IMG/VR virus record: IMGVR_UViG_3300035492_000236
From: a virus
Lineage: Duplodnaviria > Caudoviricetes
Direction: 5' to 3' (one strand)
DNA length: 64,000 nt
Part shown: one piece after another, positions 18,134 to 51,268 of the stretch
Layout of the letters: the number at the start of each line of letters is the position of its first letter
Position numbering within the stretch: position 1 is the stretch's first letter
The notes under the pieces: generated by a model
The model's database searches: none
What the model saw: the letters and a program-made list of their open reading frames with translations, nothing else
Told to the model about the DNA's origin: nothing
Program-made: the position numbers and the translations under genes

Positions 18134-18171
18134 GTCAAAACTCCAAGATACTAACAACACAAACAAAAGGT

Positions 18172-18191
18172 GGGGTGACCGAAGCCACCCC
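18172..18191 (-). terminator. Hairpin with UUCG-containing loop and U-rich tail
   Basis: ggggtgaccgaagccacccc followed on the - strand by a U-rich run. Confidence 0.6.
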
Positions 18192-18198
18192 AAGTACA

Positions 18199-18798
18199 TT
18201 AGCCGTAAATAGCCTGACCTTCTTCCAGCAGACCGTAGGACCAGCTTTCCAGTCGGTCAGCGAACTGTGCCAGCAGCTCGTCACGGGTGAACCAACCTAG
18301 GATTTCGATTTGGTCTTCCTTCGCGGTAGCGGCTTCGTCGATGACGTCCATGATGGATAACGCACCAGCATGTACCTGGTCAGTTTCAGTGACCATGGAG
18401 ATGATGTACTTGTTGGTAACGCGCAGCCCTTCAGTCAGGCCCAGCGTCAGCTCCTCGCCCAGTTCGCGATGCGCGGCGTTCAAGGCGGTGGCTTCGAGAT
18501 CCAGGACGCTGTCGACATGCACACAGTCTTCCAGATCGACGTGACCGCCGAAACCGATAGACACCTGACCATGCAGGCGCGCTTCGCCGGCGCTGGTGGT
18601 TCTTGCATACGCCAGGAATTTCTGGTCGTGACGGATGATAGTGTAGCTGATCAGTTGGCGGTACGCGGTGTTGGTTTCCAGTCCTTCCCGTTGCATCAGC
18701 ACCAGGTCGTGATTGTCGACGGCGGCCTCTTCCAGGTGAAAACCCAGCATGTTGCGGAAGATGTTCGTGTCGATGGCGAGAATGTGTTGCGGTTTCAT
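18199..18798 (-). CDS. Nudix-family hydrolase (predicted phosphoesterase, MutT-like)
   Basis: Y.Q.I.Y, E.RLHG..SIG.GGHV and RELGEEL Nudix-box motifs. Confidence 0.75.
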   Translation of the reverse strand: MKPQHILAIDTNIFRNMLGFHLEEAAVDNHDLVLMQREGLETNTAYRQLISYTIIRHDQKFLAYARTTSAGEARLHGQVSIGFGGHVDLEDCVHVDSVLDLEATALNAAHRELGEELTLGLTEGLRVTNKYIISMVTETDQVHAGALSIMDVIDEAATAKEDQIEILGWFTRDELLAQFADRLESWSYGLLEEGQAIYG

Positions 18799-18807
18799 TT
18801 AGGTTCC

Positions 18808-19611
18808 TTAAACTTGTTCTACAGTAACGGCGGAGTTGGTAACGATGTAGTCTACCAGTTTACGAATCAGGCGTTCTGCCTGTTGTTCCACCCGCGCTTT
18901 GTTAGGCAGCGGGTAATAATCGAGTTTAAACCCATCGGTGCCGTTCAGGGTGTAATAGTAGCCACACCCACTGACCCGCAGTTCACCTCGATTGATATTA
19001 AACAGTTTCCCATCGGTGCTGAAGTTCACAGAGATCGTGACACCTTCACTCCGCAAAGTCAGCCCGTAATGGATAGAATGCGCGCCCACCGTCATCCGAT
19101 GACGGGCATCCACGACCGGATGACGGTCCAGGCAATCGATCAGTTCCTTGCTATTCCACACATCTTCACGAGCGATGGTGTCGTCGAACACGTGCTCGAG
19201 CTGCAACAACTGCTTTACCACCGGCTGCTCATCCTGCACCTGCTTGTCGTGAGTTTCCAGATAGTCGGCAAGTCGGCTGGTCTTCAGGCTAAACACCTCC
19301 ACCATTTCACGATTGCGCATGATGAAGTGCTCGTTATCCATCTCCAGTCGCAGTTCGATGTCGGGATGGATCACGATGCGAGCCACGTATTCTGGCCCTA
19401 GCAGTCCGGTAATGTAGCGACGACGTTCGTCGTCGGTTTTGTTTACCCACTCAGGCGGACCGCTACGGACAAATGCGTGCAGCACGGTATCGACTTGCAC
19501 CATCAGGATCGGAAACACGTCCGTGCCTTTGATGGGATAATCTGCCCGCAGGGTGATTTTTCGACCGCCGAGATTCACAACGATCGGTTTAGGCACAAAG
19601 GGCTTAGACAT
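18808..19611 (-). CDS. Hypothetical protein
   Basis: ORF; start MSKPFV overlaps the upstream stop. Confidence 0.6.
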   Translation of the reverse strand: MSKPFVPKPIVVNLGGRKITLRADYPIKGTDVFPILMVQVDTVLHAFVRSGPPEWVNKTDDERRRYITGLLGPEYVARIVIHPDIELRLEMDNEHFIMRNREMVEVFSLKTSRLADYLETHDKQVQDEQPVVKQLLQLEHVFDDTIAREDVWNSKELIDCLDRHPVVDARHRMTVGAHSIHYGLTLRSEGVTISVNFSTDGKLFNINRGELRVSGCGYYYTLNGTDGFKLDYYPLPNKARVEQQAERLIRKLVDYIVTNSAVTVEQV

Positions 19612-19930
19612 GACTTTCCTCCAGCTCCAGAAAATCCAGCGTTTCGAGTTCGGTGATGTCGCCAGCAGACCCGACCTCGTACGCATAAAGGCGACCATTC
19701 ATTTCAACCGCAGCACGGTCGGCGCGCTCAACGACGCGACCGACGCCAAACTTGGCTTTGGCCTTCTTGATGACCTTGACGTAAGTGGGGCCAGCAAACC
19801 CCTTCTTCGCAAGATCGTCCGTGTAAAGGAGGTGTAGGGTGTTGTTGAACACCAGGCCGTAGGCTGCACCACGTTCGGTCATCCAGCCGCTAACACGCTG
19901 ACCTTTATAATGAGTATTAAATTGTTGCAT
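19604..19930 (-). CDS. Hypothetical protein
   Basis: 108-aa ORF with SD ggag. Confidence 0.6.
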   Translation of the reverse strand: MQQFNTHYKGQRVSGWMTERGAAYGLVFNNTLHLLYTDDLAKKGFAGPTYVKVIKKAKAKFGVGRVVERADRAAVEMNGRLYAYEVGSAGDITELETLDFLELEESHV

Positions 19931-19942
19931 GGTTGCTCCTAA

Positions 19943-21220: not shown

Positions 21221-21895
21221 TTATTTTTGATAGGTATTGAGGATTTCACACACATAGTTGGGGAGTCGTTTGAACGAACCCATCCGTTCAAACATCAAAT
21301 AGTGGGCTTCCAGTTCCCACGGTTTGGCCTTCATCTCAGCCATCATGAACCGAAGTGCAGGTATTGCATCAGGGTAAATGTCAGCATACTCCGCAAGCAG
21401 ACACTCGACCTCACTGGCCTTCATGGCCATTCGCATTTCTTGCCCCTTCCAAACGAAACGTCCGCCTAATACATCAATGAGGAAGTCGCTGCGTGCGATC
21501 TGGTCGATGTGGATGGATTCATGAAACATCACCGAGTCAAAATACGATGGGTCGTCTACTGAGTCAGCGAGAAAGTCGCTTGGGACCACAATGTGAGGGA
21601 CATTGCTCGCCACGTCAAGGGTGACGAATGCTGTAACTTGGTCCAAGATACAATCGATCTGGTAGTCCTTACAAAGCTCACGAAACGCAACACAGTCGAC
21701 GGTGGTCACGTTGCAGCGCTCCAGTCCATTGATGTCGTGCGGGCGACTAAGCAGATCATCCACATGGTGCGGTAAATTAATCGTTGCTAACGACCGGCGA
21801 CGGAAGTCGGCCAGCGACCCACGACTGTCAATGATCGCCAGCTGTTCGCGGGGGATGTCAGCACGCTGCATCGGGGTGGGGGTATAAATGTTCAT
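21221..21895 (-). CDS. Putative zincin metallopeptidase
   Basis: HESIH (HExxH) plus downstream PWELEA third-ligand motif; TATCTTGGAG RBS. Confidence 0.5.
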   Translation of the reverse strand: MNIYTPTPMQRADIPREQLAIIDSRGSLADFRRRSLATINLPHHVDDLLSRPHDINGLERCNVTTVDCVAFRELCKDYQIDCILDQVTAFVTLDVASNVPHIVVPSDFLADSVDDPSYFDSVMFHESIHIDQIARSDFLIDVLGGRFVWKGQEMRMAMKASEVECLLAEYADIYPDAIPALRFMMAEMKAKPWELEAHYLMFERMGSFKRLPNYVCEILNTYQK

Positions 21896-21953
21896 GATGG
21901 GATCTCCAAGATAAAGAAGGTGGTAGGTAGGGCGTCCCCTACCTACCTATGTA

Positions 21954-23472: not shown

Positions 23473-23847
23473 TCATTGGAAATGCGGATTGAACACGATA
23501 TCAACGATTTTGCCGTTCTCACGAACAATGTTGGACTTCATACGTCCAGCGGAAAACCGAGCGCTGGAGAAAATGCCCAGCGTGGCATGCAGACATGCGC
23601 GACTCAGACAGCTGAAGTCGCCCTTACGCACCAGCCCGTTGATGCTGTAAACTGTCTGCCCGAAGTGGATCGTGTGTGACCACTCGACGACAGGCACATC
23701 GTCCAGCCAGCGCATTTCGTTGTTAATGCAACGGCCACGACTGGAAGAGTAGCCAAGTTTTTGGTAGCGGTCCAGTAGGGCTTCCTTACGAGCAACCAGC
23801 TTGCGACCGTTGGACCATTTCATCTTTACTTTGAGGGAATTAAACAT
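23473..23847 (-). CDS. Hypothetical basic protein
   Basis: Start MFNSLK after TATCTTGGAG. Confidence 0.55.
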   Translation of the reverse strand: MFNSLKVKMKWSNGRKLVARKEALLDRYQKLGYSSSRGRCINNEMRWLDDVPVVEWSHTIHFGQTVYSINGLVRKGDFSCLSRACLHATLGIFSSARFSAGRMKSNIVRENGKIVDIVFNPHFQ

Positions 23848-23913
23848 AACGGTATCTCCAAGATAGTGCACGGTATTGTGCAGATGAATCGCATTTTGTA
23901 TGCTGATTCACTA

Positions 23914-23928
23914 GGATGATATATATCT
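23914..23928 (-). promoter_or_regulatory. Early-promoter-like motif AGATATATATCATCC
   Basis: Exact copy of 16638-16652 in an AT-rich intergenic region. Confidence 0.6.
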
Positions 23929-26760: not shown

Positions 26761-26810
26761 GTGAAGCTCCTTTTATTTACCGCTACAGTATTAAGTAGGC
26801 GCATAAAAAA

Positions 26811-26832
26811 CTAGGAGACCGAGGTCTCCTAG
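26811..26832 (-). terminator. Intrinsic terminator
   Basis: ctaggagaccgaggtctcctag plus A6 tract. Confidence 0.7.
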
Positions 26833-26859
26833 CATTCGTTTTGATAATATATGTCTGTC

Positions 26860-28064: not shown

Positions 28065-28289
28065 TTAAAGATCTTCGTCGATCAGTAGCTGCTCGAACAT
28101 TTCCACGCCGCGATTGCGGATACGATCATGCAGATCCGTGGCCTGTTTATGGTCGATATGGAGTGTATCCATGATCTCTTGGATCTGATTTTCCCGCACG
28201 GTCCAGTCTGCATCATCATCGCCATTAACATCAGTGGCCACGCCGTAAACAATGATATCCAGTATGGCTTCTTTACTTAACTTAAGCAT
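28065..28289 (-). CDS. Hypothetical acidic protein
   Basis: 74-aa ORF with SD aaggag. Confidence 0.55.
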   Translation of the reverse strand: MLKLSKEAILDIIVYGVATDVNGDDDADWTVRENQIQEIMDTLHIDHKQATDLHDRIRNRGVEMFEQLLIDEDL

Positions 28290-29289: not shown

Positions 29290-29803
29290 TGAGGCATTCA
29301 GGGACAGCCACCGTCACCATCTTAAACCGACGACTGTAGGAGATCTCAATGGCCTCACCACCACCTTTCATGTAATCCCGTTCTAACATTCGTACGTAAA
29401 TGGCATTACAGTAGATGTCACGGTGTTCAGTGAACAACAGGTCTTTTGCACGCTGCATGGCCCGCGACGGTATGTCGTGCAGACCCACCGACCCCGGTTG
29501 GATGATTGCCAACCCGTAACCATCGGCCCCTTCTAACTCATCGAACTTTTTCAACCGTCCCACGAAGTCAGGGTGGGCATGACTGAACGCAATCACGCCG
29601 CCGTCAATAACCGCGGCATGAACCGGCAGCCGCTCAAAGCTGGGGTAATGTTTACGGATTGCCTCAATGGCTTCCAGCGGTGTCATGGAGACGCCTGGTT
29701 TGAATGTAGCATGGACTACACCACTGAACGAGGCACAGCTCGCCAGATGGTCTTCCACGTCGTTGATGTACTGTTCAGCAACGTATTCTACTTTAGCGTT
29801 CAT
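29264..29803 (-). CDS. Hypothetical protein
   Basis: 179-aa ORF with SD aaggag; ATGA overlap with the upstream gene. Confidence 0.6.
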   Translation of the reverse strand: MNAKVEYVAEQYINDVEDHLASCASFSGVVHATFKPGVSMTPLEAIEAIRKHYPSFERLPVHAAVIDGGVIAFSHAHPDFVGRLKKFDELEGADGYGLAIIQPGSVGLHDIPSRAMQRAKDLLFTEHRDIYCNAIYVRMLERDYMKGGGEAIEISYSRRFKMVTVAVPECLIVEFRLGD

Positions 29804-30435
29804 GAGTTCTCCTTATAATAACGATAGGCGGTGAATAGCGACATGTAAATCATCATAGGAGTCAACACACACCAGACCAACAACTCAACGGACTCTGCCT
29901 GCTGATCCAGGGAGTGCTTGGTGGAAGCGATCAGCATCATCCACGACGTTAGCAACAACACATACCACTGTCGTCGCAGGTTCAATAGTACTGTCGAGAT
30001 CGCCGCCGCACCCACACCTACCATCAAGCAGTAAAGGGTATTGATGTTGTTATCGAGACCGTAAGGGATCACTGCGGTAGACAGCATGGCAGTGATTAGG
30101 ATTTCATTGGCCACGTCTCGGTGTTGTGCTAACTGTTGATTGACGGGCACGCTCCAGCGAATGAATAACGCCAACGTAATTGGCATTACAAACACCGGCC
30201 CGGCCACAGACATATCGCCAGACATGGCCCAGGCTATCAGCAGAGCCAGGTACAAAAGTCCACCCACGCTATAAAACACCGTTGCCACTGGTCCCTGTCT
30301 CGCGGTTGCCAGTATCAGCCCGCAGGATGCGGGGGCGTATAGCAGTGCCAAGTTACCCAGCTGGGTACATACTGCTGCGATCGCTAACAGCATCGCCCAA
30401 TGCGCCTGCGTTATATGCCATTCGGTTGTCTTCAC
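29800..30435 (-). CDS. Polytopic membrane protein
   Basis: GTG start after TATCTTGGAGG; about 6-7 hydrophobic segments. Confidence 0.6.
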   Translation of the reverse strand: MKTTEWHITQAHWAMLLAIAAVCTQLGNLALLYAPASCGLILATARQGPVATVFYSVGGLLYLALLIAWAMSGDMSVAGPVFVMPITLALFIRWSVPVNQQLAQHRDVANEILITAMLSTAVIPYGLDNNINTLYCLMVGVGAAAISTVLLNLRRQWYVLLLTSWMMLIASTKHSLDQQAESVELLVWCVLTPMMIYMSLFTAYRYYKENS

Positions 30436-30491
30436 TGTGTCCTCCAAGATAATAAGACCACTAACATAAGAAGTGGTCTACTATTGTTTTT

Positions 30492-31028
30492 TTACAGGCG
30501 GCTCAATCTGGTCAGTCTCGGCAGGTTCTTGAAGCACCGCCTGCGCTTGAGTTCTTGACACAACTCCGTCATCGGTAAGATATCGTAGTTCTCCGTGCGG
30601 ATCAGTGATACTTGACTGAGCAGATCCAACGCACCCTTGATGTCGTCGTTGCTAAGGTGCATTGCGACGTGGGCAGCGGATGCCCGTACTTCAAACATCA
30701 CAATAAACCGGGTGGAGTAGGGTAGCACCGACGGGATAGTGGCGTTGACGTAATGCCGGTCTTCCGGGATCAGCTTGACGTCGTACAGCGTGCCATCGTG
30801 GCGCAACAGTGCCCCGCGAAGGATACCAGGTAACGCACCCGTGTCACGCGCTTTGAAATTCCCCACTAACAGGTTCCATACGTTGAACGACACGATATCC
30901 AGCGGCAGAAACAGCCCGTAAGGTGTGAACAGCGACTCCCGTTTCAGGTCGATGTACTCCGCGGACAAGCCAGCAATTCGCTTAGGTACAGTGAGATGGG
31001 TTTCGTTTGCAATGATAACGCCAGACAT
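30492..31028 (-). CDS. Hypothetical protein, possibly a degenerate Ntn-fold partner
   Basis: Coupled (TAATG) to the HslV-like gene; weak C-terminal similarity to it. Confidence 0.5.
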   Translation of the reverse strand: MSGVIIANETHLTVPKRIAGLSAEYIDLKRESLFTPYGLFLPLDIVSFNVWNLLVGNFKARDTGALPGILRGALLRHDGTLYDVKLIPEDRHYVNATIPSVLPYSTRFIVMFEVRASAAHVAMHLSNDDIKGALDLLSQVSLIRTENYDILPMTELCQELKRRRCFKNLPRLTRLSRL

Positions 31029-31522
31029 TAGACGGTCTCCATGGGTTCTAAATTAGCGGCGTGGACAATGTCTACACCAGTTCCTTGCAGCTCCCCGAAC
31101 TCACCTGCGAGCTTTACTGCGGCATGCGGCTCAAGACCGGCCAGGTATGCCACCATGGCTGCTTGTCCGCCAGTCCCTGCCCAGCGACGACGGTCGTGTC
31201 CTAGCTCGCACAATCCATTATCATCTAAATAAAATGAACTGTCATGCGTCAGAATGAAGTACTCATCTTCACCATTCGCCAGCAGTGCCAGCCACTCTTT
31301 GTTCAGCGGCTGATTTGCGTAATGGGCACCCACCAACTCCCGTATCTTCTTTACTCGGTCACGAATCACTCGTGTGGCAGGGTAGGAACCCAAGATACCT
31401 ACCGCCACACGTTGGTCTTCCGACAAGAACAGTTTGGGTACGTCTTCTTTGATCTCATTGGAACCTGCCCAGATCGTACTATCCATGGCTAAAAACCCGT
31501 CGGCCAGTATTGCTGTGGTCAT
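31028..31522 (-). CDS. HslV/proteasome-beta-like Ntn protease
   Basis: Start MTT gives an N-terminal Thr nucleophile; LAMDS and GTGG.AA..A....AV.LA motifs. Confidence 0.6.
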   Translation of the reverse strand: MTTAILADGFLAMDSTIWAGSNEIKEDVPKLFLSEDQRVAVGILGSYPATRVIRDRVKKIRELVGAHYANQPLNKEWLALLANGEDEYFILTHDSSFYLDDNGLCELGHDRRRWAGTGGQAAMVAYLAGLEPHAAVKLAGEFGELQGTGVDIVHAANLEPMETV

Positions 31523-31589
31523 TGAAACTCCAAGATAAAAAATAAAACATAGCAAGGGGAGGCGGTCGAAACCACCTCCCAGTCGACTG

Positions 31590-31919
31590 TTAGTACCGCT
31601 CGATCACCGACATGGACGTTCTGCCGTCAGTGGTGGTGTCTTTACGAGGCGAACGTTTCACATTCACCTCCACTTCCCCGGCTGCTGCATTCACAGACAA
31701 CAGCAGGCTATCGCCGGCCGCGACGTCGTGCTTCTTGCTATCGAACGCGATGACAATGGACTTCAACGCACCGAAGGCCGCCAGTGGGCCTTCCTTGGGC
31801 GACATGTCAGGATCGATCGCCAGAGTGACGTCACCTTTACTGACACGCACTACTTTGGCAGTGTGTACGCCATGCTCATCAGCGGGAAACAGGGGAAGCA
31901 GTTCTTTCGAGATAGTCAT
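31590..31919 (-). CDS. Hypothetical protein (OB-like beta strands)
   Basis: 109-aa ORF, coupled to the upstream gene. Confidence 0.55.
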   Translation of the reverse strand: MTISKELLPLFPADEHGVHTAKVVRVSKGDVTLAIDPDMSPKEGPLAAFGALKSIVIAFDSKKHDVAAGDSLLLSVNAAAGEVEVNVKRSPRKDTTTDGRTSMSVIERY

Positions 31920-32584
31920 TATACAGTTCCTTCTACTTGGTTGGTGTTGGAGTTGGTGTTGTTGGAGGCTTCCGCAGCCGCAAGTGCGTCACGGATGGCT
32001 TCCATTTGTTCAGCAGTGGCATTACCGCCGCCGAGCATTTGCTTTTCAAGTTTACATTCGGTCAGAACCCGGTTGGCTTTCTCGGTGTCGAGAATGTCCA
32101 GGTCGAGGAATTGGTCCAGGATCATGTCACTGCGAGCAGTGATCTTGTTGACATCGCCGTGGGTTGCCACCCAACCATATCCCTTCACGGCGTCGTAGCC
32201 GTACTTGCCACGCAGGTCATCGATGATGGATTGCAGATACTGTCCGAACACCACATCGAACTCCCGCACCTTAAGGCGCTCAAAGCTCTGGGTGTCTTCA
32301 TGTACCCACAGTTCGGTGTCGTCTGCCAGGAACACACACCACCAGACGTTGAAAGTGCGTGGGTGCTGACGCAGCAGACTGCGCACGATTTCTTCAAGTG
32401 CGTCTGCCTCGTATTTTTCCCGCGTGTGTCGACGGATGCGTTCAATGCCTTCGACGGTGACGCCACGGACCACACTGCATCCCATATACGTGACACCTGA
32501 GATAGTCAGGTCAATTGCCCGGCGGTAGTTCTTGATCAGGCGAGCTTCGTACTTCTGTGCTTTGGTCATTTGTTTTCCAGACAT
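31919..32584 (-). CDS. Hypothetical protein
   Basis: 221-aa ORF with TATCTTGGAG RBS. Confidence 0.65.
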   Translation of the reverse strand: MSGKQMTKAQKYEARLIKNYRRAIDLTISGVTYMGCSVVRGVTVEGIERIRRHTREKYEADALEEIVRSLLRQHPRTFNVWWCVFLADDTELWVHEDTQSFERLKVREFDVVFGQYLQSIIDDLRGKYGYDAVKGYGWVATHGDVNKITARSDMILDQFLDLDILDTEKANRVLTECKLEKQMLGGGNATAEQMEAIRDALAAAEASNNTNSNTNQVEGTV

Positions 32585-32612
32585 GGGGTCTCCAAGATAA
32601 TGAAAGCGTGGG

Positions 32613-34658: not shown

Positions 34659-34662
34659 TAGG

Positions 34663-34878
34663 TTATTTCCTTGTGGTCGTGGTTTCCAGATCATACATAC
34701 CCACGCCGCCGTGTTCTAGCCGGTGGAGGAGGTTTTGTTGATCACTCGGGAAGAAGCGCCTATATTCAGCAATGATTAAGCGCAATGCTTCTTCCTGCAT
34801 ACTCATGTCACCGATTGCGGACTTGCCTGTCCTGGGGCGCTGTGGCGGTAGTTGAAGATTAAACTGTGGGTGCTTCAT
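34663..34878 (-). CDS. Hypothetical protein
   Basis: 71-aa ORF. Confidence 0.45.
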   Translation of the reverse strand: MKHPQFNLQLPPQRPRTGKSAIGDMSMQEEALRLIIAEYRRFFPSDQQNLLHRLEHGGVGMYDLETTTTRK

Positions 34879-34880
34879 AG

Positions 34881-34961
34881 TTAGCGGTACTCGAAGGTGG
34901 CGTCGGTTAATGGGCGAGTTGAGTTAGTTATATACAATGTATCGGGAGGATGATGTTCCAT
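34881..34961 (-). CDS. Possible 26-aa microprotein MEHHPPDTLYITNSTRPLTDATFEYR
   Basis: SD ttggag 9 nt before ATG; fills the gap, and its stop lies 2 nt before the next ATG. Confidence 0.4.
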   Translation of the reverse strand: MEHHPPDTLYITNSTRPLTDATFEYR

Positions 34962-34991
34962 TGATACTTACTCCAAATGTACGACAACGTA

Positions 34992-35567
34992 TCACACAAG
35001 GACATCTTCGCTTCGTATAACACAAATCACCACTGTATGGTGTTTCGATATCCGACGGCATGCTGAGATTTGGTCCCGCTCGATTAAAGCCCCGGCATCG
35101 TCCCCATTTCTGATGTATCTTGCTATGTTGTCTAACAACAAGTTACGGCAACGAGGTCCCAACATATCGAACGGAGTCGTTGTAGACGTTGTGCCGGTTC
35201 TGCCAGTGTATTGTTCTTCCTCTTCCATGTCGGCCATCACAGCTTCGATAAAGACGTTATTGACTTTTCCAGTTTCTCGGCAATGTCGGGTGATCGTGAC
35301 CATAACCGAGAAGCTGTCACCAAGGTCCTTGCGTTTGCGGACAGTAACTTTAGAAAACACAGGACGGTCTAGCAGAACATCGCGAAGCACTACCTTCAGG
35401 TGATTGATCAATTCCAAAATCGTGGTGTTCTGCTCGTCCTCGAAGAGGTGGTCGATGACGCTATCCTCAATCAGACGAAACTGGACATCGATCGGTAAAA
35501 GTATCGCCGCATTGCCAATGTCGTATTCGTCCAGTTCTCCTTGATTTATTACTCGTGGAATTTGATG
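34992..35567 (-). pseudogene. Paralog of 36130-36711 lacking a canonical start (non-AUG start or 5'-decayed)
   Basis: Homology (DEYDIGNAA vs DEYNLGDAG; SKVTVR.R.DL) extends 50 codons upstream of the first ATG/GTG/TTG. Confidence 0.5.
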
Positions 35568-35647
35568 TTATTTAAAGCGTAGATCTATCTTATCATTTCG
35601 ATAAGGCTATCTTCAAAATAGAGCAAGTCAGTGAATGTTGATATTAA

Positions 35648-36106
35648 TTACTGGTCTTTAAAGGAGTAGATATGTGTTGTCAGTAGCTGTTCAAATTCGT
35701 GTTCTTTTCCGCACATTACTGCACGGTAATAACCAGTAATGTAAGTAACGTCACCTGCCAGCTCGAGCGCATTCAGAATATCCCTTCCAGTACGCGCCGA
35801 CTCGATCAACCGATGCATGTTGGAACGACGTTCTGCATCCATCGGCTCCCCACGCACATAAGTGCCGTATTCTAAACAAACCACCGAAGTTTCCTGGTCT
35901 AGACCGATGGGGGTCGTCAGCTTATCCAACTTGACCCCAAACTTAATGATTTTCGCATCATGATCACTCATCCGCCCCAACAACTTGCCGACGACTTCTC
36001 CGGGTATGTGTTTGGCGCCACCATAACGCCAGCAGTAATACTTAAAGCGAAGATCAAACCACCATTGATTGGCGTATTTAAATACGTAATGTATGATACG
36101 TTCCAT
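35648..36106 (-). CDS. Hypothetical protein
   Basis: 152-aa ORF. Confidence 0.55.
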   Translation of the reverse strand: MERIIHYVFKYANQWWFDLRFKYYCWRYGGAKHIPGEVVGKLLGRMSDHDAKIIKFGVKLDKLTTPIGLDQETSVVCLEYGTYVRGEPMDAERRSNMHRLIESARTGRDILNALELAGDVTYITGYYRAVMCGKEHEFEQLLTTHIYSFKDQ

Positions 36107-36129: not shown

Positions 36130-36711
36130 CTACTTGCTGCTGAATTCAAAACAGGTAATGACTGACCGTTGCGGTGAGGCACGTCGGATGATGGTGAACT
36201 TATTGCCAGCCCGGCCGAACCCAAGCTCACGGTGTCCGTAGCGATTAAAGATTCGTTCATCAAGCCATTCGTCAGCAGTTATGGACACCCACCGGTTCAG
36301 GAAGTCTCTACGCGTCGCCAGCTCATCTTCAGGGCGTTTGTACGTGGAGCCGGGCGGTGTGGAGATCAACGCGGTTTCAATTGCGACAGTGCGTCGAGAA
36401 TCGTCCATGTGCTGTAAGTCAATGCGGACATCGTACTGCCACTCGAGGTCTGATCTGGTACGGACCGTCACCTTAGACACGACGTTGGTATAGATTAACG
36501 CTTCGCCGAGAAAATGATTGAGGTGGTCTGCTAAGATCAGCAGATCTGGCTGATTAGATTCCAGATCGATGTGTTGCATCGCTAATCGTTCCAGTAGCCT
36601 CAGCTTGATGGGTAGTGGGACATAAGCCCCTGCATCACCAAGGTTGTATTCATCCTGGACAGTGATTCTAGCAGGCTTACTTGGGACTTTGAATTCAACT
36701 ACTTTAGTCAT
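36130..36711 (-). CDS. Hypothetical protein (paralog of 34992-35567)
   Basis: Start MTKVVE after ggag. Confidence 0.6.
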   Translation of the reverse strand: MTKVVEFKVPSKPARITVQDEYNLGDAGAYVPLPIKLRLLERLAMQHIDLESNQPDLLILADHLNHFLGEALIYTNVVSKVTVRTRSDLEWQYDVRIDLQHMDDSRRTVAIETALISTPPGSTYKRPEDELATRRDFLNRWVSITADEWLDERIFNRYGHRELGFGRAGNKFTIIRRASPQRSVITCFEFSSK

Positions 36712-37978
36712 GGTGACTCCGTGATTGGGTTGTGATAATGTCTGAGATCTGGGCACCGTGGCGGGCTTCGACACCGCCATTAACTTTCGTGGCGGCAACC
36801 TCCCACTCCAACCTCACAGTCCCATCGGCATTGTAACGCCGATTTTTGTGTTCGCTACGGTCATGTGGGATCATTTTCCTACCAGTGTGTCTAGATAACG
36901 GCCCGCGGTATTGACCCAGCTTGGGGATAGCGCGACTGGTGGTGAGGTGCCAGGTAGTAGCTTGCTGTTTCTCGAGATCGGTAATGTACCAAATGACTGC
37001 CTCACGTTTCAGTTCTTGTTCCACCACTTTGCGTTTAACGGGCAATTGGGCAGCAATGGCCGCCTCATACGCATCAAGCCGCGCCTTAAATACCCCACCA
37101 CAACGGCCTAATAATAACTCGGCTAGACGATATTCGTCACTCCATGGTAAGACGAGGTGCGGCTCGGCATCTTCTGACGCGTAGCTGTAAAACGACTCGC
37201 TTGGGATGTGGTACATGTAGAAGGCGTCCTGAGCCAAACTGCTCCGCCAATCCTTAAGCAAAAATGCTTCTTCTCCTAATTTACCTTTAAAAGCTAGCAG
37301 ACTGTACGCTTCCAACTCGCCGCCGCCTTGTTCAATGACAATATTCCACGGCTGGAGACTACCATCGCCATACCGTGGCAGTAATGCCACACTGCTTCTG
37401 AGGTCGACCGTGTCGGGACCGTTGTCGGTTCGGTAAATCACGGCCTTATTGAAACTAGCCAGTAGCTTGAACACCATTTGTGAGCGCGGCGTCAGCTTAC
37501 TGAAAAACGCTTCCTTGGGCTTCATCGCCAATACCTGTTCCCGAGGGACTGGAGGGAACACACCAACCAAGACGTGGTAACTAGGTGCTCTAAACGGTGC
37601 CGGACGACCAGCGTCAGGACCGACCGCAGGGTTGGGGCGGCGATAGCCGAGAGCTGACTGTAATGCGTTCGCACTGGTTTGGTCAGTGTGACTGGTTGCG
37701 GCTCTCGCGGATGATGTCAGAGTTGTCGTAACTGCACTGTGGAAAATATCAGGGCCGATGTCTGTCATGCGACCCCGAGGACCAACAGACTGATCGAATT
37801 GGTGAGGGCTGACGATATCGCGTCCGAACGGGGAGGGCTTTGGTATAGATGGGTTATTCCGCATTTCGTTAACCGTTGCTATCAATCGATGTTTGCGTCC
37901 CATGTATTCGCTGGTATCCAGGTCCCGTGCTTCGGTTTCTCCATGTGCACGTAAGGGGACTTGCTTATACTTTTCCAT
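36704..37978 (-). CDS. Hypothetical protein (424 aa)
   Basis: SD cttggag, downstream of a promoter-like motif; basic C-terminus with H.R..H..R...W....VNG pattern. Confidence 0.6.
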   Translation of the reverse strand: MEKYKQVPLRAHGETEARDLDTSEYMGRKHRLIATVNEMRNNPSIPKPSPFGRDIVSPHQFDQSVGPRGRMTDIGPDIFHSAVTTTLTSSARAATSHTDQTSANALQSALGYRRPNPAVGPDAGRPAPFRAPSYHVLVGVFPPVPREQVLAMKPKEAFFSKLTPRSQMVFKLLASFNKAVIYRTDNGPDTVDLRSSVALLPRYGDGSLQPWNIVIEQGGGELEAYSLLAFKGKLGEEAFLLKDWRSSLAQDAFYMYHIPSESFYSYASEDAEPHLVLPWSDEYRLAELLLGRCGGVFKARLDAYEAAIAAQLPVKRKVVEQELKREAVIWYITDLEKQQATTWHLTTSRAIPKLGQYRGPLSRHTGRKMIPHDRSEHKNRRYNADGTVRLEWEVAATKVNGGVEARHGAQISDIITTQSRSHHD

Positions 37979-38023
37979 GCGTTGATCTCCAAGAACTGGT
38001 TTGGTTAATGCTCAGATGCATTT

Positions 38024-38038
38024 GGATAACATATACCT
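38024..38038 (-). promoter_or_regulatory. Early-promoter-like motif AGGTATATGTTATCC
   Basis: Variant of the 15-bp motif downstream of a terminator. Confidence 0.5.
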
Positions 38039-40446: not shown

Positions 40447-40733
40447 TAGCTCTCACTTGCGGGCGAAGCAGGGCCCTTCTCGACAAAGGTGTAACGCAAT
40501 GGTGCGTGAGCAGGAACAATGCGACCAACCATCACCCCACTGTCGGAGAACGCGACATTATCAACTACTGTTACCTTGTCGCCAATTTCCAATGTCGGAC
40601 AGGCAATGCCGGGCAACATGGTCAGTGTTGGACCAGTAATCTGCGATTTCAGGTAGTACTCCACCGTAGTGTTTCCTGCACGGGTAATTTCCATACTACC
40701 GTCGACATAACACGCCAATCTTTCACTACTCAT
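40446..40733 (-). CDS. Hypothetical protein
   Basis: 95-aa ORF; ATGA overlap with the thyA stop. Confidence 0.55.
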   Translation of the reverse strand: MSSERLACYVDGSMEITRAGNTTVEYYLKSQITGPTLTMLPGIACPTLEIGDKVTVVDNVAFSDSGVMVGRIVPAHAPLRYTFVEKGPASPASES

Positions 40734-41026
40734 TTTGCCACCTCAAATTTAATAGCTGGGTGATGTTGGTAGTTCACCAACTCGAAATCTTCGGGGTTGT
40801 AGTCGAACACCGTCGGTGCCAGACGCAGCATCTTCAGTTGCGGCAACGAATACGGTTCCCGTGACAACTGCTCTTTTAGCGGTTCGATTTGGTTTTCGTA
40901 GACGTGTGCGTCTGTCGCAGTCAGCCACAGCTCACCTACGTCCATGTCCACTTCGGCCGCCAGGATATGGGTCAGCAGTGCATAGAACATGATGTTCACT
41001 GGCGCGCCGGCCGGCCAATCGTTAGA
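40730..41026 (-). CDS. thyA: Thymidylate synthase, exon 2
   Basis: SNDWPAGAPVNIMFYALL...DAHVYENQIE...QLSREP...F.L.NY..HPAIK: canonical ThyA C-terminus. Confidence 0.9.
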   Translation of the reverse strand, partial: SNDWPAGAPVNIMFYALLTHILAAEVDMDVGELWLTATDAHVYENQIEPLKEQLSREPYSLPQLKMLRLAPTVFDYNPEDFELVNYQHHPAIKFEVAK

Positions 41027-42218
41027 CATTACCTTCAACTAGGCTCGCTAGGCCTAGCCCGTACATCTGGCCAGAATGTACTGCCCACCTCGCGATGGGA
41101 ATGAGGACAAATCACTATCTCAACCCACAAGTCACTGCACATGACTTTATATGTAAAGGTTGAGATACACTTACCGTTTCGACTACGCTCGTAGCCTACT
41201 CTACTCAGTTCACCTGACGGTGCCTTTCGATGTCCGTGGGGCATTTATACTCAAGCTATTTTCCATTCCGAGAATCTTGGGTTTTTCGACCTAACGCGAT
41301 GTCGAACCGTACCTCGACATATTCCTAACGCATCGGCGGCCCGCTGCATGGAATCATACGCAACGCCATTTATAACCACGCCAATTTCAGTCCCGTTTAG
41401 TCTTCCTAGGTTGGCTTCGCGCAAGCGTCTCTTGGTTTCGTCGCTATGAGTTCTACCGTAGAAGTGGTTGCGCTCACCTCGATAAAGATGTGCATTGTCG
41501 CGCATGCGTTTGCACATCTCCTCGTATTGGCGTTGTGGCATTGGCTTGCCTTTGTTTGGTGGGGTCGTTCCCAATATTCGCTGTCGCTGTCGCTCCTTAA
41601 CCTCGTCTGTATGTGTCCTACCATACATTGGGTTTTTGCATCCGCTAATGTCCCAGCGCTTTGCCTTCTGCTCTGGTGTCATCGCGGCGCATGTCTCAGA
41701 CAGCGTCTTGCTTCTACGTGAAATTACGTCTTCTCGGTTTGGGTTGTATGTCAAAGTGTCTTTAAAGCTATCGCCGGCAGCGACATTATAAAGCTTCCCA
41801 GTCGCTATAATGCGATTGACAAGAGCAGACTCTAATTGGAACGCCTCTTCATAGGTATCAAACGACTTTAGCGGCTTTATTCTAAAGATCCCACCGTTAT
41901 CGAAGTCTGCTTGTAAAGATTTACTATGATGTCGTCCGCCCATTAGCATTCCAATATGATCAGCCTTTCGCCTCTTGAAATTCCTGGTGCTTCCGTAATA
42001 CCTCTTTCCAGTACCAACCTCTAAAATGACATACACGTATGGTTTATCTTTAATCATACCCAAATCCAAATCATTAACAACACACTGATTAGATGGATTC
42101 GTTATGAATAACAGCTCGAGTAACTTAGCAACGGATTGACATGCCGGTCTTGCCGACAGCTTCCCCGTTTTAGGTAAGGTTTTCGACGTACGTCACCGTA
42201 CGAAGGCGCTCTCTCTTA
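41027..42218 (-). mobile_element. Group I intron (IA2, T4 td-like), 1192 nt
   Basis: 5' site after U (CGU/UAA) with P1 U.G pair; ends in ...UAAUG; AAACGGGGAA and CAAUCCGUUGCUAAG P/Q elements; P3 CUUACC/GGUAAG; P7 GGACA/UGUCC; P9 with GCGA loop. Splicing restores ...LR-SND.... Confidence 0.9.
41251..42057 (-). CDS. Intron-encoded GIY-YIG homing endonuclease (I-TevI-like)
   Basis: YVY...YYGST...R..H GIY-YIG module, two NUMOD3 repeats (YGRTH.DE.K), C-terminal HTH. Confidence 0.9.
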   Translation of the reverse strand: MIKDKPYVYVILEVGTGKRYYGSTRNFKRRKADHIGMLMGGRHHSKSLQADFDNGGIFRIKPLKSFDTYEEAFQLESALVNRIIATGKLYNVAAGDSFKDTLTYNPNREDVISRRSKTLSETCAAMTPEQKAKRWDISGCKNPMYGRTHTDEVKERQRQRILGTTPPNKGKPMPQRQYEEMCKRMRDNAHLYRGERNHFYGRTHSDETKRRLREANLGRLNGTEIGVVINGVAYDSMQRAADALGICRGTVRHRVRSKNPRFSEWKIA

Positions 42219-43130
42219 ACGCAGACTAACATGCAGGTTCAGTCGGTACTTGGGCGCGTACTTCAACACGATGGCTTCCCGCTCTTCCTGGGAGATGCAT
42301 CCGCCCGTGACTTTCATCTCTGCCGCTATCACATACTTGGAGAAATCCGTCCACAACCTATGTTTGTGGTTCGCCAGCCGTTCTTCAGCCGACATCTCTT
42401 CCACTTTACACACGAAGTTCCAATGGCAGGGCGCCAGCGCCATCTTACCACGTGCCACGTTCTCCTGCGGCGACAGGCGCTCATCCGGCAGCAAGGCCGG
42501 GAACCAGGTAGAGACCACATGCCGACGAGAAGTGGGGTTCATCCGTAGACCATTCACCAGCTTTTGGATCTGGTCGGTGGTGGTACCGTCCCCGTTCGGG
42601 AAGGCGCGCCACATCTTGCCATACAGCGGACCCAGGTCACCGATGTCGCACGTCTTCACCCACTCTTCGGTTGTCCAGTTATGGTGTTTCAGGTAGAAGG
42701 TCGCCAGCTCCTGGTCAGAGGGGATGTACATGGGGTCTTTCCCAGCATGCTCTTTCCAGGTATCGTGGATTACCTTGATGGCATCCAGACCATACACGCC
42801 GTAGATGTCACCGATGCGGTCCATCGTGTCCGCAAACGTCAGCTTACGGGTGATGTAGCATTGCTCGTCGTTTTCAATCGCCCACTTGTTCCAGAACGTC
42901 ACCCCGTGGTCATTCAAGAACTTGACGTTGGTGTTGCCGGACAACATCCACAGCAGCTCCACCACAGCCCCCTTGAAATACCCCTGTTTCGTGGTCGGAG
43001 CGGGGAAGCCTTGGCGCAAGTCAAAGCGTACGCTTTCCCCAAAGGTGGAGACGGTATCGACACCAGTGCGGTTGTGGGCACGTACGCCGTTAGTAAGGAT
43101 GTTGTTGGCAACGTTGATGTACTGTTCCAT
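42219..43130 (-). CDS. thyA: Thymidylate synthase, exon 1
   Basis: RTG..T...FG, ELLWMLSG.TN, W..WA, LGPLYG..WR, P.SRR, MALAPCH active-site Cys; two large insertions. Confidence 0.92.
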
Positions 43131-46196: not shown

Positions 46197-47210
46197 TCAG
46201 AGCAACATTGTCGGCAGTTCAACTGTCGCCGTAGACTGCGTTGCAGTATGACTACTGCGATCTTTAGTGAGGTTAGACAGCAACTTACCATCCGTTAACT
46301 GGATGTATAACTCAACATCCACCTCCTGAGTTAGGTTGGGATGACCACGGTATTTACTCCGGTCGAATGTTACGAATTCTAGCGGGTGACTAACCACCAA
46401 CGTGCCGTCGTAGATAGCGATATTTCTCAGCGTCCGTATTGCCTGCTGGATATCGTGTTCTCCCGAAACCTTGGATAGGCAATTGCAATAGAAAACGGTG
46501 GTGCAATCTCCATCGTAAAGTGCTTCCCAGGTTTCTTTGAGATCACTGATCGGAGCGTCAGCATCGCTAAGTTTGATTACTTTCAGAAATATTCCTGTCT
46601 GCATACTGAAGTCATCTATGAACGCGGTGCGTGCATCGTCGTGTTCAAACTCGGGCAATGGACGCTCAGTGACTTGGAGGAACATGTCCGCGTAATAAGA
46701 TTTCACGTCTTCATCGGTGGCGTCGTAAGGCGCCACCCACACCAGCAACCGCGGGCCGCCGTCCACTGCGGCCACAATAATGTCACGTGCAGCCAGGCTG
46801 AGTGCAGCACGGTCTCCAAGTTCCGCATCTTCACAGCCGATCAACGTACACATGGGTGTGTTGTCGCGAGCCAGGTTAAGTTCGGCATATCCACTCCAAT
46901 CCTTAACGGTCAACCGTTTCAGTCGCGTCTCGAACACTTGCAAGGCTAATTGCTGCAACGTGGTGCGATCATCGACTCTTCGGTTAATGTACTCATTAGG
47001 GCGAGCATCCACCCAGGCCGTGGGATCTTCGGTCAGGTAAGTGTGGGTTGTCTCAGTAAGCTTCTCAGCCAACTCAATCGTTGCGTCCTGGCGTTCAATG
47101 ATATCAAGCAGTGCGCTTGCCTCGGCATCAGTAGGCGGATGAAGTTTGAACTGGTTGCGCAACGTACCCATGGGGTTTCGGATAATGGCTTGGGCATATT
47201 CTTTTAACAT
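46197..47210 (-). CDS. Hypothetical protein (337 aa)
   Basis: ORF with tatctggag RBS. Confidence 0.6.
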   Translation of the reverse strand: MLKEYAQAIIRNPMGTLRNQFKLHPPTDAEASALLDIIERQDATIELAEKLTETTHTYLTEDPTAWVDARPNEYINRRVDDRTTLQQLALQVFETRLKRLTVKDWSGYAELNLARDNTPMCTLIGCEDAELGDRAALSLAARDIIVAAVDGGPRLLVWVAPYDATDEDVKSYYADMFLQVTERPLPEFEHDDARTAFIDDFSMQTGIFLKVIKLSDADAPISDLKETWEALYDGDCTTVFYCNCLSKVSGEHDIQQAIRTLRNIAIYDGTLVVSHPLEFVTFDRSKYRGHPNLTQEVDVELYIQLTDGKLLSNLTKDRSSHTATQSTATVELPTMLL

Positions 47211-47227
47211 GAGGATCTCCAGATAAA

Positions 47228-47716
47228 TTATTGAGTCAGTTCTTTTAACATGTCGCGCTGAAAGGCTTGTAAGTCAACCGTCCAGTGTACTAACATTTCA
47301 AGTGGTGCGCTGTCAATTACTTGATACAATTCAGATATGTCGTGCGCGTTGCAGTTATATAAAGCTGCAAGATACCGGACATGGTCTTTGAGTTTCTTGT
47401 ACGCGGTACCAAAGTCCTTAAGGTGACTGTGGTCGTAACAATCACTCGACGGTACAGACAGACCACCGAACGTGAACCAGAGGTTGCTCGGGTCCCACAC
47501 CAACCCTAACGGCACCCGCACGCAGTTTGGTCGATTTGGTATATCCGCGTACTGCGGCGAAATCAAGAATATGGAACTGGTGTCTTTCATATACCGGCGA
47601 AGGAAGGGCGTAGGTAGCACCCACTCCGTGGTAGGGACGTATACTTTGCCAGCGTATACATCGTACTCATCGCTGACAACTTTACAGCCAGTGTGGTTAT
47701 AGATAGAAATAGTCAT
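47228..47716 (-). CDS. Hypothetical protein (weakly DUF4326-like)
   Basis: TATCTTGGAG RBS; YDVYAGK...W..P.PF pattern. Confidence 0.5.
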   Translation of the reverse strand: MTISIYNHTGCKVVSDEYDVYAGKVYVPTTEWVLPTPFLRRYMKDTSSIFLISPQYADIPNRPNCVRVPLGLVWDPSNLWFTFGGLSVPSSDCYDHSHLKDFGTAYKKLKDHVRYLAALYNCNAHDISELYQVIDSAPLEMLVHWTVDLQAFQRDMLKELTQ

Positions 47717-47774
47717 CGCAGAACTCCAAGATAAAAAATAAGAAGGGTGGGTAGCGAACTACCCACCGTGATTG

Positions 47775-48929: not shown

Positions 48930-48964
48930 GTCACTTTTCCTTTTTGTGTTGTTGGTTGTTATAC

Positions 48965-49432
48965 TTACAAGGCGTCGACCAGATCGATCAGACTCTTAGG
49001 ATCCACACTGATATCTTGGTGTACGTAAACCACTTCGTGGGAGTCCTTCGGCTCGTCCGTCACGTGTGTGCTAATGGTGGCGAAATAATGGATTGCGGAC
49101 TGCCCATGGCGACAATCGGGCATAGCGCCGTCAATATGCAGGCGGTGGCGCAGTTCATGGGCGTTGGTAGACGACTCAATCATCTGGCAGAACACAGCAT
49201 GCCAGCGGCCGAATTCCTGCACTGCCAGTTCCATACCGAACAGTTCCTGCGCGCTTACACCACGCACTTGCTCCAGTACGATGTCACGTATGTTGCTGAA
49301 CGGCTGCCAATCGCCAAACGTCAGCGTCAGCTCAATCCGGTCGTGAGTGGCGCCATTCATTGCAAAATCCACCAGGTCAGAAGCGATGGCCACTTTGACG
49401 ATAGTGCGCTGTGCGGTTTCGGAAGTAGTCAT
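48965..49432 (-). CDS. Hypothetical protein
   Basis: 155-aa ORF with ttggag. Confidence 0.6.
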   Translation of the reverse strand: MTTSETAQRTIVKVAIASDLVDFAMNGATHDRIELTLTFGDWQPFSNIRDIVLEQVRGVSAQELFGMELAVQEFGRWHAVFCQMIESSTNAHELRHRLHIDGAMPDCRHGQSAIHYFATISTHVTDEPKDSHEVVYVHQDISVDPKSLIDLVDAL

Positions 49433-49455
49433 AATCGAATCTCCAAATATTGTTA

Positions 49456-49914
49456 TTAGAACCAGACGTGCTGGTAGATGTTTGCGTGGTATTGGTTATG
49501 GTCATTTTGCCATAACTGTTTGACTAAGTGACACTGGTCGCTAGGGCGACTGAGGGTGAAGTGGGCATCTCCGTCTACCTCCGCTAGGATCTCAGTGTGA
49601 TAGAACATGTTCAAGTAAGGCTCGAACGCCCTCATCACTACACCTCCGCCAATGACGAAGATATCCGCTTGTTTAGCGGCCTCCACGACCGCTTGGATCT
49701 GGGCGTCGTAATCGCCCTTACTGCGACTGATAACCCACTCGGTGCGATTTGGGAGCGGTCCAGGCAGGGACGCCTTGGTGACGCTACCCATCACTATCGT
49801 GTGACCATCCGTCAGCGCTTTAAAGTAACGGAGGTCATCACGCATTCGCCAGGGCAATTTACCATTGTTGCCAATTACCCCATTGCGGTCCGTTGCCATT
49901 ACCCCGATCAGCAT
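49456..49914 (-). CDS. folA: Dihydrofolate reductase
   Basis: NGVIG.NGKLPW....D..YFK..T....IVMG..T..SLP.PLP.R...V.SR, IGGG, GDAHF motifs. Confidence 0.92.
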   Translation of the reverse strand: MLIGVMATDRNGVIGNNGKLPWRMRDDLRYFKALTDGHTIVMGSVTKASLPGPLPNRTEWVISRSKGDYDAQIQAVVEAAKQADIFVIGGGVVMRAFEPYLNMFYHTEILAEVDGDAHFTLSRPSDQCHLVKQLWQNDHNQYHANIYQHVWF

Positions 49915-50735
49915 GCGTTAAACTCCTCCGGCCAGCCACGGCGGATGGCGGCGGCAGACGTAGTCCGCACACTGCCGTACGCAGCCACCACAACCTTGCC
50001 ACCAGGACGGCTATAGCGCACACCATCTTCTTTGACGTCGTAGCTTTCGATGACGTCAATCACCCGACCTATGCCAAACGGGCCATACACGACATCACCA
50101 GGACACACTGAATCAAACGGGGTGGCGTCAGGACAAATGCTCAGTTCCGCCTGGGTCTTGGCAGCTTGCAGGAGGCGCCGGTAGGTCTCGGCTGACACAT
50201 GCAAGCTGACGTAGTTCCGACCAGAACTGAACGGGGTCTTCGGCTGGCCCCATTGATATTCTGTCATATGCAACTTGGCGAAGTCGTCTTCGTCCAGAGT
50301 GTGCACTTCTTCGCAGTTATCACACACCACATATGCCTTGAACGGCCCGATGTCAATCACGTCATCGTTCAGCTGACAGGTCAGGCTGTAGTTGAAAATG
50401 GACGGCTCCAGCTTAACCATTTCTTGGTCCAGGACGGTGCGGTAATCTATCTTCGCGGTGAGGTCGGCTAACTTAGCGTACGTCTCGGCCCCACATTCGA
50501 AGATCATCTCTTCGCCGAGCAGTTCATTGGCCGGCAAGCTATGGCCATTGCGCAATATTACCACCGCAACATCCATATCTTCGGAGTTGCGAACCTCTTT
50601 AACGGCGATCGTTTTGCCGCTGTTGCGCTTCGGTAGTGTGATATGAACCGGGATGATTTCATCAGCGATAGCGCGAGTGGCCACTTGCAGAGTGATGCTA
50701 TTTACGTCGGTTTTGTAAACGGGTTGTGCAGTCAT
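49908..50735 (-). CDS. Hypothetical protein with CxxC and a C-terminal KOW/SH3-like motif
   Basis: Start MTAQPV after ttggag; CDNC; PGDVV..PFG.G.V. Confidence 0.55.
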   Translation of the reverse strand: MTAQPVYKTDVNSITLQVATRAIADEIIPVHITLPKRNSGKTIAVKEVRNSEDMDVAVVILRNGHSLPANELLGEEMIFECGAETYAKLADLTAKIDYRTVLDQEMVKLEPSIFNYSLTCQLNDDVIDIGPFKAYVVCDNCEEVHTLDEDDFAKLHMTEYQWGQPKTPFSSGRNYVSLHVSAETYRRLLQAAKTQAELSICPDATPFDSVCPGDVVYGPFGIGRVIDVIESYDVKEDGVRYSRPGGKVVVAAYGSVRTTSAAAIRRGWPEEFNAC

Positions 50736-50781
50736 TGGGTTCTCCAAAATGAGGGAAGTGTCATTGAGTACGATGCGTATC

Positions 50782-51126
50782 TCACGTGGATGAAATATAC
50801 TTGAAAAGGTTTTGATTGTGGGGGGTGAGAGTGGGAATGTCAGCAACGCCTAATCGCAGCTCATACATGAAGGGGTGGCCAGGCACTGCTTTCAAATTAC
50901 TTGTACCTCGTTCTAACTCCAGGTGCCACCTGGCCTGGTTGTGGGTGACTCCATGGAGGTCGTTATCTCCGGCAAACAGCGTGGATAGATAGCCGTGAAT
51001 GTAAGTATTGAGATGGTTGACAGTCTCTTCATTGAGCACGTCACCGTCAAGCAGCTCTAGGGCTTGGAATAACGGCGTCTCTACCAGAACCTTCCACAGG
51101 TCCTGCTGGTTAGTGATTATCGACAT
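50782..51126 (-). CDS. Hypothetical protein
   Basis: 114-aa ORF with SD taggag. Confidence 0.55.
   Translation of the reverse strand: MSIITNQQDLWKVLVETPLFQALELLDGDVLNEETVNHLNTYIHGYLSTLFAGDNDLHGVTHNQARWHLELERGTSNLKAVPGHPFMYELRLGVADIPTLTPHNQNLFKYISST
50788..50802 (-). promoter_or_regulatory. Early-promoter-like motif AAGTATATTTCATCC
   Basis: Variant of the 15-bp motif about 50 nt upstream of 50735. Confidence 0.5.
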
Positions 51127-51268
51127 GCAATTAACTCCTATAACGGCTCCAAGATAATGCAGTCATCAATTATTTTCAACAGCAAGTCCAGTTATCACAT
51201 GGAGTCTGTCACCTCCACAAGACTTTCGTTACAATACTTATGTTGACAACCGTTGAAATGGAGCATGC

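Follow-up and report, generated by a model that had tools for sequence, protein, structure and literature searches.

Why would a phage repeat one and the same ten-base word in front of mutually unrelated genes? The question is raised by a 64-kb stretch of viral DNA (IMG/VR record IMGVR_UViG_3300035492_000236; hereafter the window, numbered from its first base), which contains eight exact copies of TATCTTGGAG, the minus-strand reading of the plus-strand word CTCCAAGATA. The word is made up of a ribosome-binding GGAG preceded by the six bases TATCTT. Its source is an uncultured phiKZ-like chimallivirus of about 386 kb from tar-pit metagenomes, and we read approximately 103 kb (about 27%) of this genome. 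We take the word, with a probability of roughly 0.4, to be a start-associated leader element, that is, a lineage-specific extended translation-initiation signal similar to the start-associated sequence (SAS) of mycobacteriophages. With a phage of the phiKZ type, a promoter for one of its own RNA polymerases (RNAPs) has to be taken seriously as a rival, and this possibility is absent from an earlier note on this DNA.

An invariant word at gene starts

The window holds eight copies where 0.09 are expected, close to the value of about 0.1 that the earlier note had claimed; none of 100 shuffles reached eight, and no other 10-mer of the window is as strongly over-represented as TATCTTGGAG. As that note had reported, all copies lie on one strand, the minus strand, in the sense of the genes that they precede. 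The 8-mer core TCTTGGAG occurs ten times (1.43 expected), nine of them on the minus strand at leaders.

We curated the minus-strand genes of the window. The word does stand just before start codons, although GGAG is 5–8 nt from them in seven of the eight copies, rather than the 6–9 nt given previously. These copies are at 18141–18150 (7 nt before the ATG of an 80-amino-acid gene, 17891–18133), 21904–21913 (8 nt before the ATG of a 224-amino-acid gene, 21221–21895, the first in the thymidylate kinase operon), 23856–23865 (8 nt before the ATG of a 124-amino-acid gene, 23473–23847), 30442–30451 (6 nt before the GTG of a gene for a 211-amino-acid membrane protein, 29800–30435), 31528–31537 (5 nt before the ATG of an HslV-like gene, 31028–31522), 32590–32599 (5 nt before the ATG of gene 31919–32584, in an operon-internal gap of 28 nt without a hairpin) and 47724–47733 (7 nt before the ATG of a 162-amino-acid gene, 47228–47716). 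The eighth, at 51147–51156, lies in the divergent intergenic region 51127–51268, 20 nt before the ATG of gene 50782–51126. It is not the working Shine–Dalgarno (SD) sequence of that gene, which has its own AGGAG (51135–51139) 8 nt before the same ATG.

Each marked cistron is preceded by a terminator, a promoter or at least 28 nt of intergenic DNA (upstream gaps are 28–85 nt, plus the one divergent region), and overlapping genes are never marked. All eight copies fall within one 33-kb block (18–51 kb) of nucleotide-metabolism and small unknown genes, which encodes thymidylate kinase (tmk), DHFR, a split thymidylate synthase (thyA), two NUDIX proteins, an AAA ATPase and many small proteins of unknown function. 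We followed the word into 39 kb of flanking DNA, 29 kb on the right (L120, L123 and L125) and 10 kb on the left (L126), which is largely structural, with capsid and tail genes among others. These flanks contain no exact copy and just two one-mismatch copies, TATCTAGGAG and AATCTTGGAG, both at gene starts.

Several simple origins of the word were rejected. The copies do not stem from paralogy of the downstream genes: the eight encoded proteins are not related to one another, there are no paralogues and the flanks of the copies share nothing. One of these proteins, encoded at 31919–32584, had no homologue besides itself. A start codon inside the word was discarded because its TTG shares the reading frame of the downstream gene at 30442 alone. 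A conserved RNA pairing partner was discarded as well, since the reverse complement is not found elsewhere and each copy folds differently. Inspection places TATCTT opposite UUA-3′ or UUUCU-3′ of canonical 16S tails, with which it does not pair, as the earlier note had stated, and 16S pairing was therefore rejected as its source for canonical tails, which may not be that of the host. A scan of viral contigs for TTATCTTGGAG-N5–9-ATG returned only scattered single matches.

Conservation in related phages

The window proteins were found on a contig of 385,734 bp. The large proteins of the plus strand are tail-fibre and virion proteins of phiKZ/SPN3US-like jumbo phages, and DNA adjoining the window encodes a PhiKZ-type major capsid protein. 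In a search of sequencing runs, DNA of this phage appeared only in tar-pit and hydrocarbon DNA runs; contigs from four runs represent the same phage, with zero variation at the motif sites. No cultured phage gave a megablast match to the window, and the protein matches of cultured relatives are below 40% identity, too distant for intergenic DNA to be compared.

A sister phage from another sample has a capsid protein that is 80% identical and accessory-block proteins that are 26–69% identical. We compared 36.7 kb of its DNA, comprising the capsid region (L128) and the syntenic accessory block, reached via thymidylate kinase (L144), and found two exact copies of TATCTTGGAG, against about 0.07 expected from the length, before non-orthologous genes. 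One (L128:7265) precedes by 5 nt the ATG of a gene inside an operon, with no terminator, and the orthologous site of the window phage reads AATAATGGAG; the other (L144:9445) comes after a terminator and stands 7 nt ahead of a gene missing from the window phage. Exact copies hence arise at new places between the two phages. The sister-only gene, of 102 amino acids, sits in a terminator–TATCTTGGAG–gene–terminator cassette (9462–9770, within L144 9400–9900) beside a convergent tail-fibre block, a layout that is moron-like.

At the sister sites orthologous to the copies at 23856, 21904 and 18141 we found TATCTAGGAG, cgTCTTGGAG and ccccTTGGAG, respectively. Orthologous sites keep 8–9 of the ten bases while the proteins are only 26–32% identical, and the motif-led genes are fast-evolving (26–35% protein identity from one phage to the other). 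Such divergence would have scrambled intergenic DNA that evolves neutrally, and the word is therefore under selection, which is strongest in TCTTGGAG. The two phages also share this core 46 nt upstream of the annotated ATG of the gene for a DUF7941 virion protein. The leader of that gene (L120 713–745; L128 approximately 21870–21900) reads TATCcTATGac(t/a)gtTCTTGGAGataa, with no start codon nearby. Judged by this comparison, TATCTTGGAG is a real, selected and lineage-specific start-associated word.

A more distant member of the same group, IMGVR_UViG_3300005076_000002 (219,689 bp; L133–L143), has 53% capsid identity and a single copy of TATCTTGGAG, which is the control level. It carries its own repeated word, GGAGTAAAC, 13 times, all on one strand and mostly continuing into (A)TG, and repeated lineage-specific ribosome-site words therefore exist in the group. 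Several of these copies follow an early box peculiar to that relative, CA(A/G)GCATATAT.

Signals around the word

The earlier note had described, at four copies, a series of GC hairpin, U-tract, word and start codon, and this order is present at each of them. Minus-strand terminator hairpins lie at 18171–18192 (9 bp, cUUCGg loop, ending 20 nt before the copy at 18141), 21922–21947 (11 bp, ending 8 nt before the copy at 21904; segment −26.5 kcal/mol, z −4.1), 31557–31580 (10 bp, followed by CUUGCUAUGUUUUAUUUUU and then the copy at 31528) and 47746–47767 (9 bp, with a tail, CTTCTTATTTTT, that runs into the copy at 47724). The stems thus measure 9–11 bp, and the segments range from −19 to −26.5 kcal/mol (z −2.1 to −4.1). 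A weak minus-strand hairpin with TATG in its loop (30456–30478; z −0.7) is found just upstream of the copy at 30442. If it is counted, hairpins of unrelated sequence adjoin five of the eight copies at 4–20 nt, rather than every copy at a fixed distance; none accompanies the copies at 23856, 32590 and 51147.

These hairpins have GC stems and U-rich tails, immediately follow stop codons and resemble the remaining intrinsic terminators of the phage. We conclude that they are ordinary terminators of the preceding units and lie outside the element. The terminator tail CTTCTTAT occurred three times (1.1 expected), which is not significant. The proposal that the hairpins are 5′-end structures of an mRNA-processing cassette finds no support, because they differ in sequence, follow stops, vary in distance from 4 to 20 nt, resemble other terminators and are missing at three of the eight copies here and at one of the two in the sister.

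Reading along the strand, nearly every transcription unit opens with an early box, TATGT or TATCTTGGAG. The early box is an AT-rich word, tcaGATATAT(A/T)T(C/T)ATC(C/A), that stands 22–66 nt before starts, always in gene sense. Six are on the minus strand of the window (61779–61792, 50788–50801, 38024–38037, 26842–26855, 23914–23927 and 16638–16651) and six are in the flanks (including L120 4478 and 8483, L123 452 and 3238, and L125 4365); the sister keeps the box (L128 6782, 12413 and 15195). It is often followed by aGGTGa. We regard it as a candidate early promoter of the virion RNAP; it agrees with the kind of early promoter reported from all jumbo phages that encode RNAPs (PMC7598289). The copy of TATCTTGGAG at 23856 lies 48 nt downstream of the box at 23914–23927 and is probably inside its leader. 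In the leaders at 26810–26855 and 16615–16651, an early-type box is followed within 10–20 nt by a terminator-like hairpin and then the gene, an arrangement that may reflect leader attenuation. Terminators that lie inside 5′ untranslated regions have been described in phiKZ.

The pentamer TATGT occurs 12 times in sense intergenic DNA (5.4 expected, P = 0.011), often right after terminators, and leads the genes that start at 28289, 27963, 39272, 44437, 43130, 26760 and 57518. This pattern fits the late promoter word of phiKZ, TATG (PMC4666361). The tetramer alone is not enriched (19 versus 18.3), and a composite of TATG 9–15 nt upstream plus the 10-mer was rejected, as only two of the eight copies have it. 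Sigma-70-like sites are at chance level (18 versus 19.6; 21 versus 19.2), and a −35-like TTGAAA stands 17 bp upstream of the copy at 51147 only.

GGAG is the general SD of the phage (29 occurrences in 37 upstream regions, z 12.9), and SDs of the TTGGAG type precede 13 of the 37 genes with gaps of at least 20 nt versus 1 of the 24 closely spaced genes (Fisher P = 0.005). The near variants listed in the earlier note are real and located at gene starts: GTTCTTGGAG (37987–37996, minus strand, 8 nt before the ATG of gene 36704–37978, in the leader behind the early-promoter-like box at 38024–38037), TATCTGGAG, with one T missing (47217–47225, minus strand, 6 nt before the ATG of gene 46197–47210), ATATTTGGAG (about 49441), CATTTTGGAG (50742) and AATTTTGGAG (60971). 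To these we add TTTTTTGGAG at 57172, also at a gene start. A graded family, YTTGGAG or TATC(N1–2)GGAG, is found in leaders 22–66 nt downstream of early-promoter boxes (TTATTGGAG, CATTTTGGAG, GTTCTTGGAG, TACTTGGAG, TATCAGGAG and TATCTAGGAG). Given this position, a looser version of the element is present in transcripts, and the exact 10-mer is the sharp peak of the graded TTGGAG-type family. Two one-mismatch copies, TATCTTGGAC and TATCTTGCAG (21641–21650 and 47365–47374), lie inside two motif-led genes, 260–350 nt past the exact copies, and are probably due to chance.

Two further features of the window lie apart from the word. The thymidylate synthase gene is split into exon 1 (42216–43130) and a C-terminal piece (40730–41029), with a GIY-YIG endonuclease gene (41251–42057) between them; this locus is probably interrupted by a group I intron with a homing endonuclease, and 40730–43130 gave no Rfam match at the gathering threshold. 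About 1 kb at 34660–35650 has no gene in the public record and only weak open reading frames (34992–35417 and 34663–34878), with no tRNA or Rfam match. The tRNA and Rfam searches of the window as a whole likewise found nothing.

Leader element or promoter

Of the interpretations offered in the earlier note, a translational enhancer or protein-binding leader remains the best, and its alternative of a processing cassette falls away. In such a leader, GGAG would serve as the working SD, and UAUCUU would be contacted on the mRNA by a trans-acting factor; candidate readers are a ChmC-class RNA-binding protein of the phage and ribosomal protein S1. The factor would give stand-alone cistrons efficient or jointly regulated uncoupled initiation, which would amount to a post-transcriptional regulon. 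Across both phages, GGAG is at working distance (5–8 nt) in nine of the ten exact copies. No promoter is needed for the copies at 32590 and L128:7265, which lie inside operons with no terminator before them. Two terminator-led genes of the sister keep TCTTGGAG or TTGGAG and have lost TATC, so TATC is unnecessary for restarting transcription at those sites. ChmC binds near the start codons of chimallivirus mRNAs, internal ones included, and no motif was found for it (PMC11077065).

Some observations tell against a leader element. Pfam and PHROGs scans of 40 window proteins revealed no RegA, RegB, S1 or CsrA-like protein. The copy at 51147 fits a promoter better, as 20 nt separate it from an ATG that has an SD of its own and the divergent region holds no other recognizable promoter. 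Five copies stand so close to the preceding terminators (4–20 nt) that a further promoter would not fit in between. An exact 10-mer that recurs eight times, with one-mismatch intermediates being few, is also more typical of phage promoters than of ribosome sites.

The phrase 'undescribed regulatory system' in the earlier note was too strong, because a close parallel, itself still unexplained, has been described: the SAS (5′-GGGATAGGAGCCC) of Cluster K mycobacteriophages (Pope et al. 2011, PMC3203893), the role of which is still open (PMC11373665, PMC12699233). Both are asymmetric conserved words with an SD core, in one orientation and a few bases before start codons (3–9 for SAS; 5–8 nt in seven of eight copies here). 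Both recur many times with little or no change, only among non-structural genes (here within about 103 of 386 kb), and are tied to genes with large upstream gaps. Inverted repeats precede about half of the copies in each, and the word is kept across related phages before unrelated genes (here at L128:7265 and L144:9445 of the sister). The conserved positions of SAS go beyond 16S pairing, and those of the present word may do so too, since TATCTT does not pair with canonical tails, although that of the host may differ. However, sequence, host and lineage (chimallivirus versus actinobacterial siphovirus) are unrelated, the word here has 10 bases rather than the 13 of SAS, and its conserved flank lies only 5′ of the SD. 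Whereas ESAS consists of conserved 17-bp repeats with SigA-like promoters, the window has non-conserved GC terminator hairpins with U-tracts, and a chimallivirus brings its own RNA polymerases. The word is thus not Cluster K SAS proper, as it has neither the GGGATAGGAGCCC consensus nor the ESAS repeats and does not come from a Cluster K actinophage.

With a smaller but sizeable probability, TATCTTGGAG is instead a promoter, or its initiator core, for one of the phage's own multisubunit RNAPs, most likely serving a middle-type class of the non-virion RNAP (nvRNAP). Transcription would start inside TATCTTG, with the 5′ end of the mRNA at the SD or a few bases before it, and terminator, promoter and ribosome site would be packed into less than 30 nt as compact cassettes. 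No promoter-like word lies between the terminators and the copies that follow them (five of the eight, and one of the two in the sister), and the copy at 51147, which is not an SD, is the sole recurrent word of its divergent region. The nvRNAP word of phiKZ, TATG, comprises four bases overlapping the start; in sense intergenic DNA of the window, TAT[GC]T occurs 22 times (10.3 expected), a number that none of 1,000 shuffles reached, and TTATC likewise forms the 3′ portion of the early box. Exact identity combined with lineage specificity, shared with the sister and not with the relative of 53% capsid identity, is typical of phage promoters. A promoter does not explain, however, why TATCTT is always fused at zero distance to an SD-placed GGAG, as two signals read by separate machines would not require a constant spacing. 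Transcription would be forced to begin within six bases of the SD, at a pyrimidine or at the SD itself, and no upstream element is conserved. Three copies (23856, 32590 and L128:7265) need no promoter, the orthologous terminator-led genes of the sister do without TATC, and the word is missing from other unit starts in the 39-kb flanks. The sharpest form of the idea, a defined 10-bp nvRNAP promoter or initiator of chimalliviruses, of a middle-type class and with the mRNA starting at its own SD, we consider less likely than not.

The described promoters nearest to the word also differ from it. The late promoter of the phiKZ nvRNAP, T(−3)ATG(+1) (PMC4666361, PMC12809450, PMC7598289), is also a very short word beginning with TAT, has no upstream boxes and heads transcription units in a phiKZ-like phage, often right after terminators. 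In the 10-mer, however, the strictly required +1 G of phiKZ (PMC4666361) is replaced by C, so the word reads TATC where the phiKZ promoter is TATG with a G start and each base essential, and six more invariant bases including the SD follow. TATGT words of the phiKZ type occur separately in the window phage. The PeSL cassettes of T4-type phages, as reported by Arbiol et al. in 2010, combine an early promoter and a stem-loop terminator and are repeated between small non-essential genes, and such terminator-plus-promoter cassettes between accessory genes would speak for a promoter here. They resemble the present arrangement in their stem-loop terminator with a short conserved signal, their variable block and possible shuffling of modules. 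Yet PeSL promoters are full sigma-70 promoters (−35 and −10 hexamers at 16–18 bp), whereas sigma-70-like sites are at chance level here and the conserved word overlaps the ribosome site.

We judge it improbable that the word is the target of a sequence-specific mRNA cleavage or repression that shuts off a gene class, either by cutting in GGAG as RegB does or through a RegA-like repressor on the ribosome site. In T4, the SDs of early genes are cleaved by RegB at GGAG; in this phage, SDs of that type are characteristic of the accessory and early block, and the element is asymmetric, in gene sense only and overlaps the ribosome site. RegB targets, like the epsilon enhancer of T7 gene 10 and the U-rich leaders bound by S1, are SD-adjacent modulators, and the likeness is that a sequence at or in the SD modulates initiation or the fate of the mRNA for a class of genes. 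Those signals are degenerate, however, whereas the element here is invariant, and its TATCTT has no complementarity to canonical 16S tails. No homologue of RegB or RegA was found among the 40 window proteins scanned, and cleavage would leave the working SD intact both at 51147 and in the leader of the DUF7941 gene.

Least probable of all is a junction word at gene boundaries that offers microhomology for the exchange of moron cassettes, or is simply a good, unstructured, U-rich ribosome site copied along: although the sister-only gene has its own terminator-flanked cassette (L144 9462–9770), the motif-led genes are mutually unrelated and fast-evolving, and the copies cluster in one variable block, ten bases are short for recombination, the flanks of the copies share nothing, and the 8–9 of ten bases kept at orthologous sites despite 26–32% protein identity indicate purifying selection rather than recent copying. 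The remaining probability is reserved for readings outside these four. On the present sequence data, the favoured leader element and the promoter are not separable.

In either case the word bears on the selection of genes for expression in nucleus-forming jumbo phages, a process that is poorly understood and in which mRNAs must exit the phage nucleus before they are translated. Because it is invariant, linked to starts, selected in two diverged phages and confined to one gene block, it offers a clean handle on a layer of this control. To our knowledge, only a 4-base promoter word is known for the nvRNAP, and middle promoters are undefined; if TATCTTGGAG is a promoter, it would be the first sharply defined one for this polymerase and would form self-contained terminator–promoter–ribosome-site cassettes of less than 30 nt. 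SAS-like start-associated words, in turn, are not peculiar to mycobacteriophages, which raises the value of solving their role.

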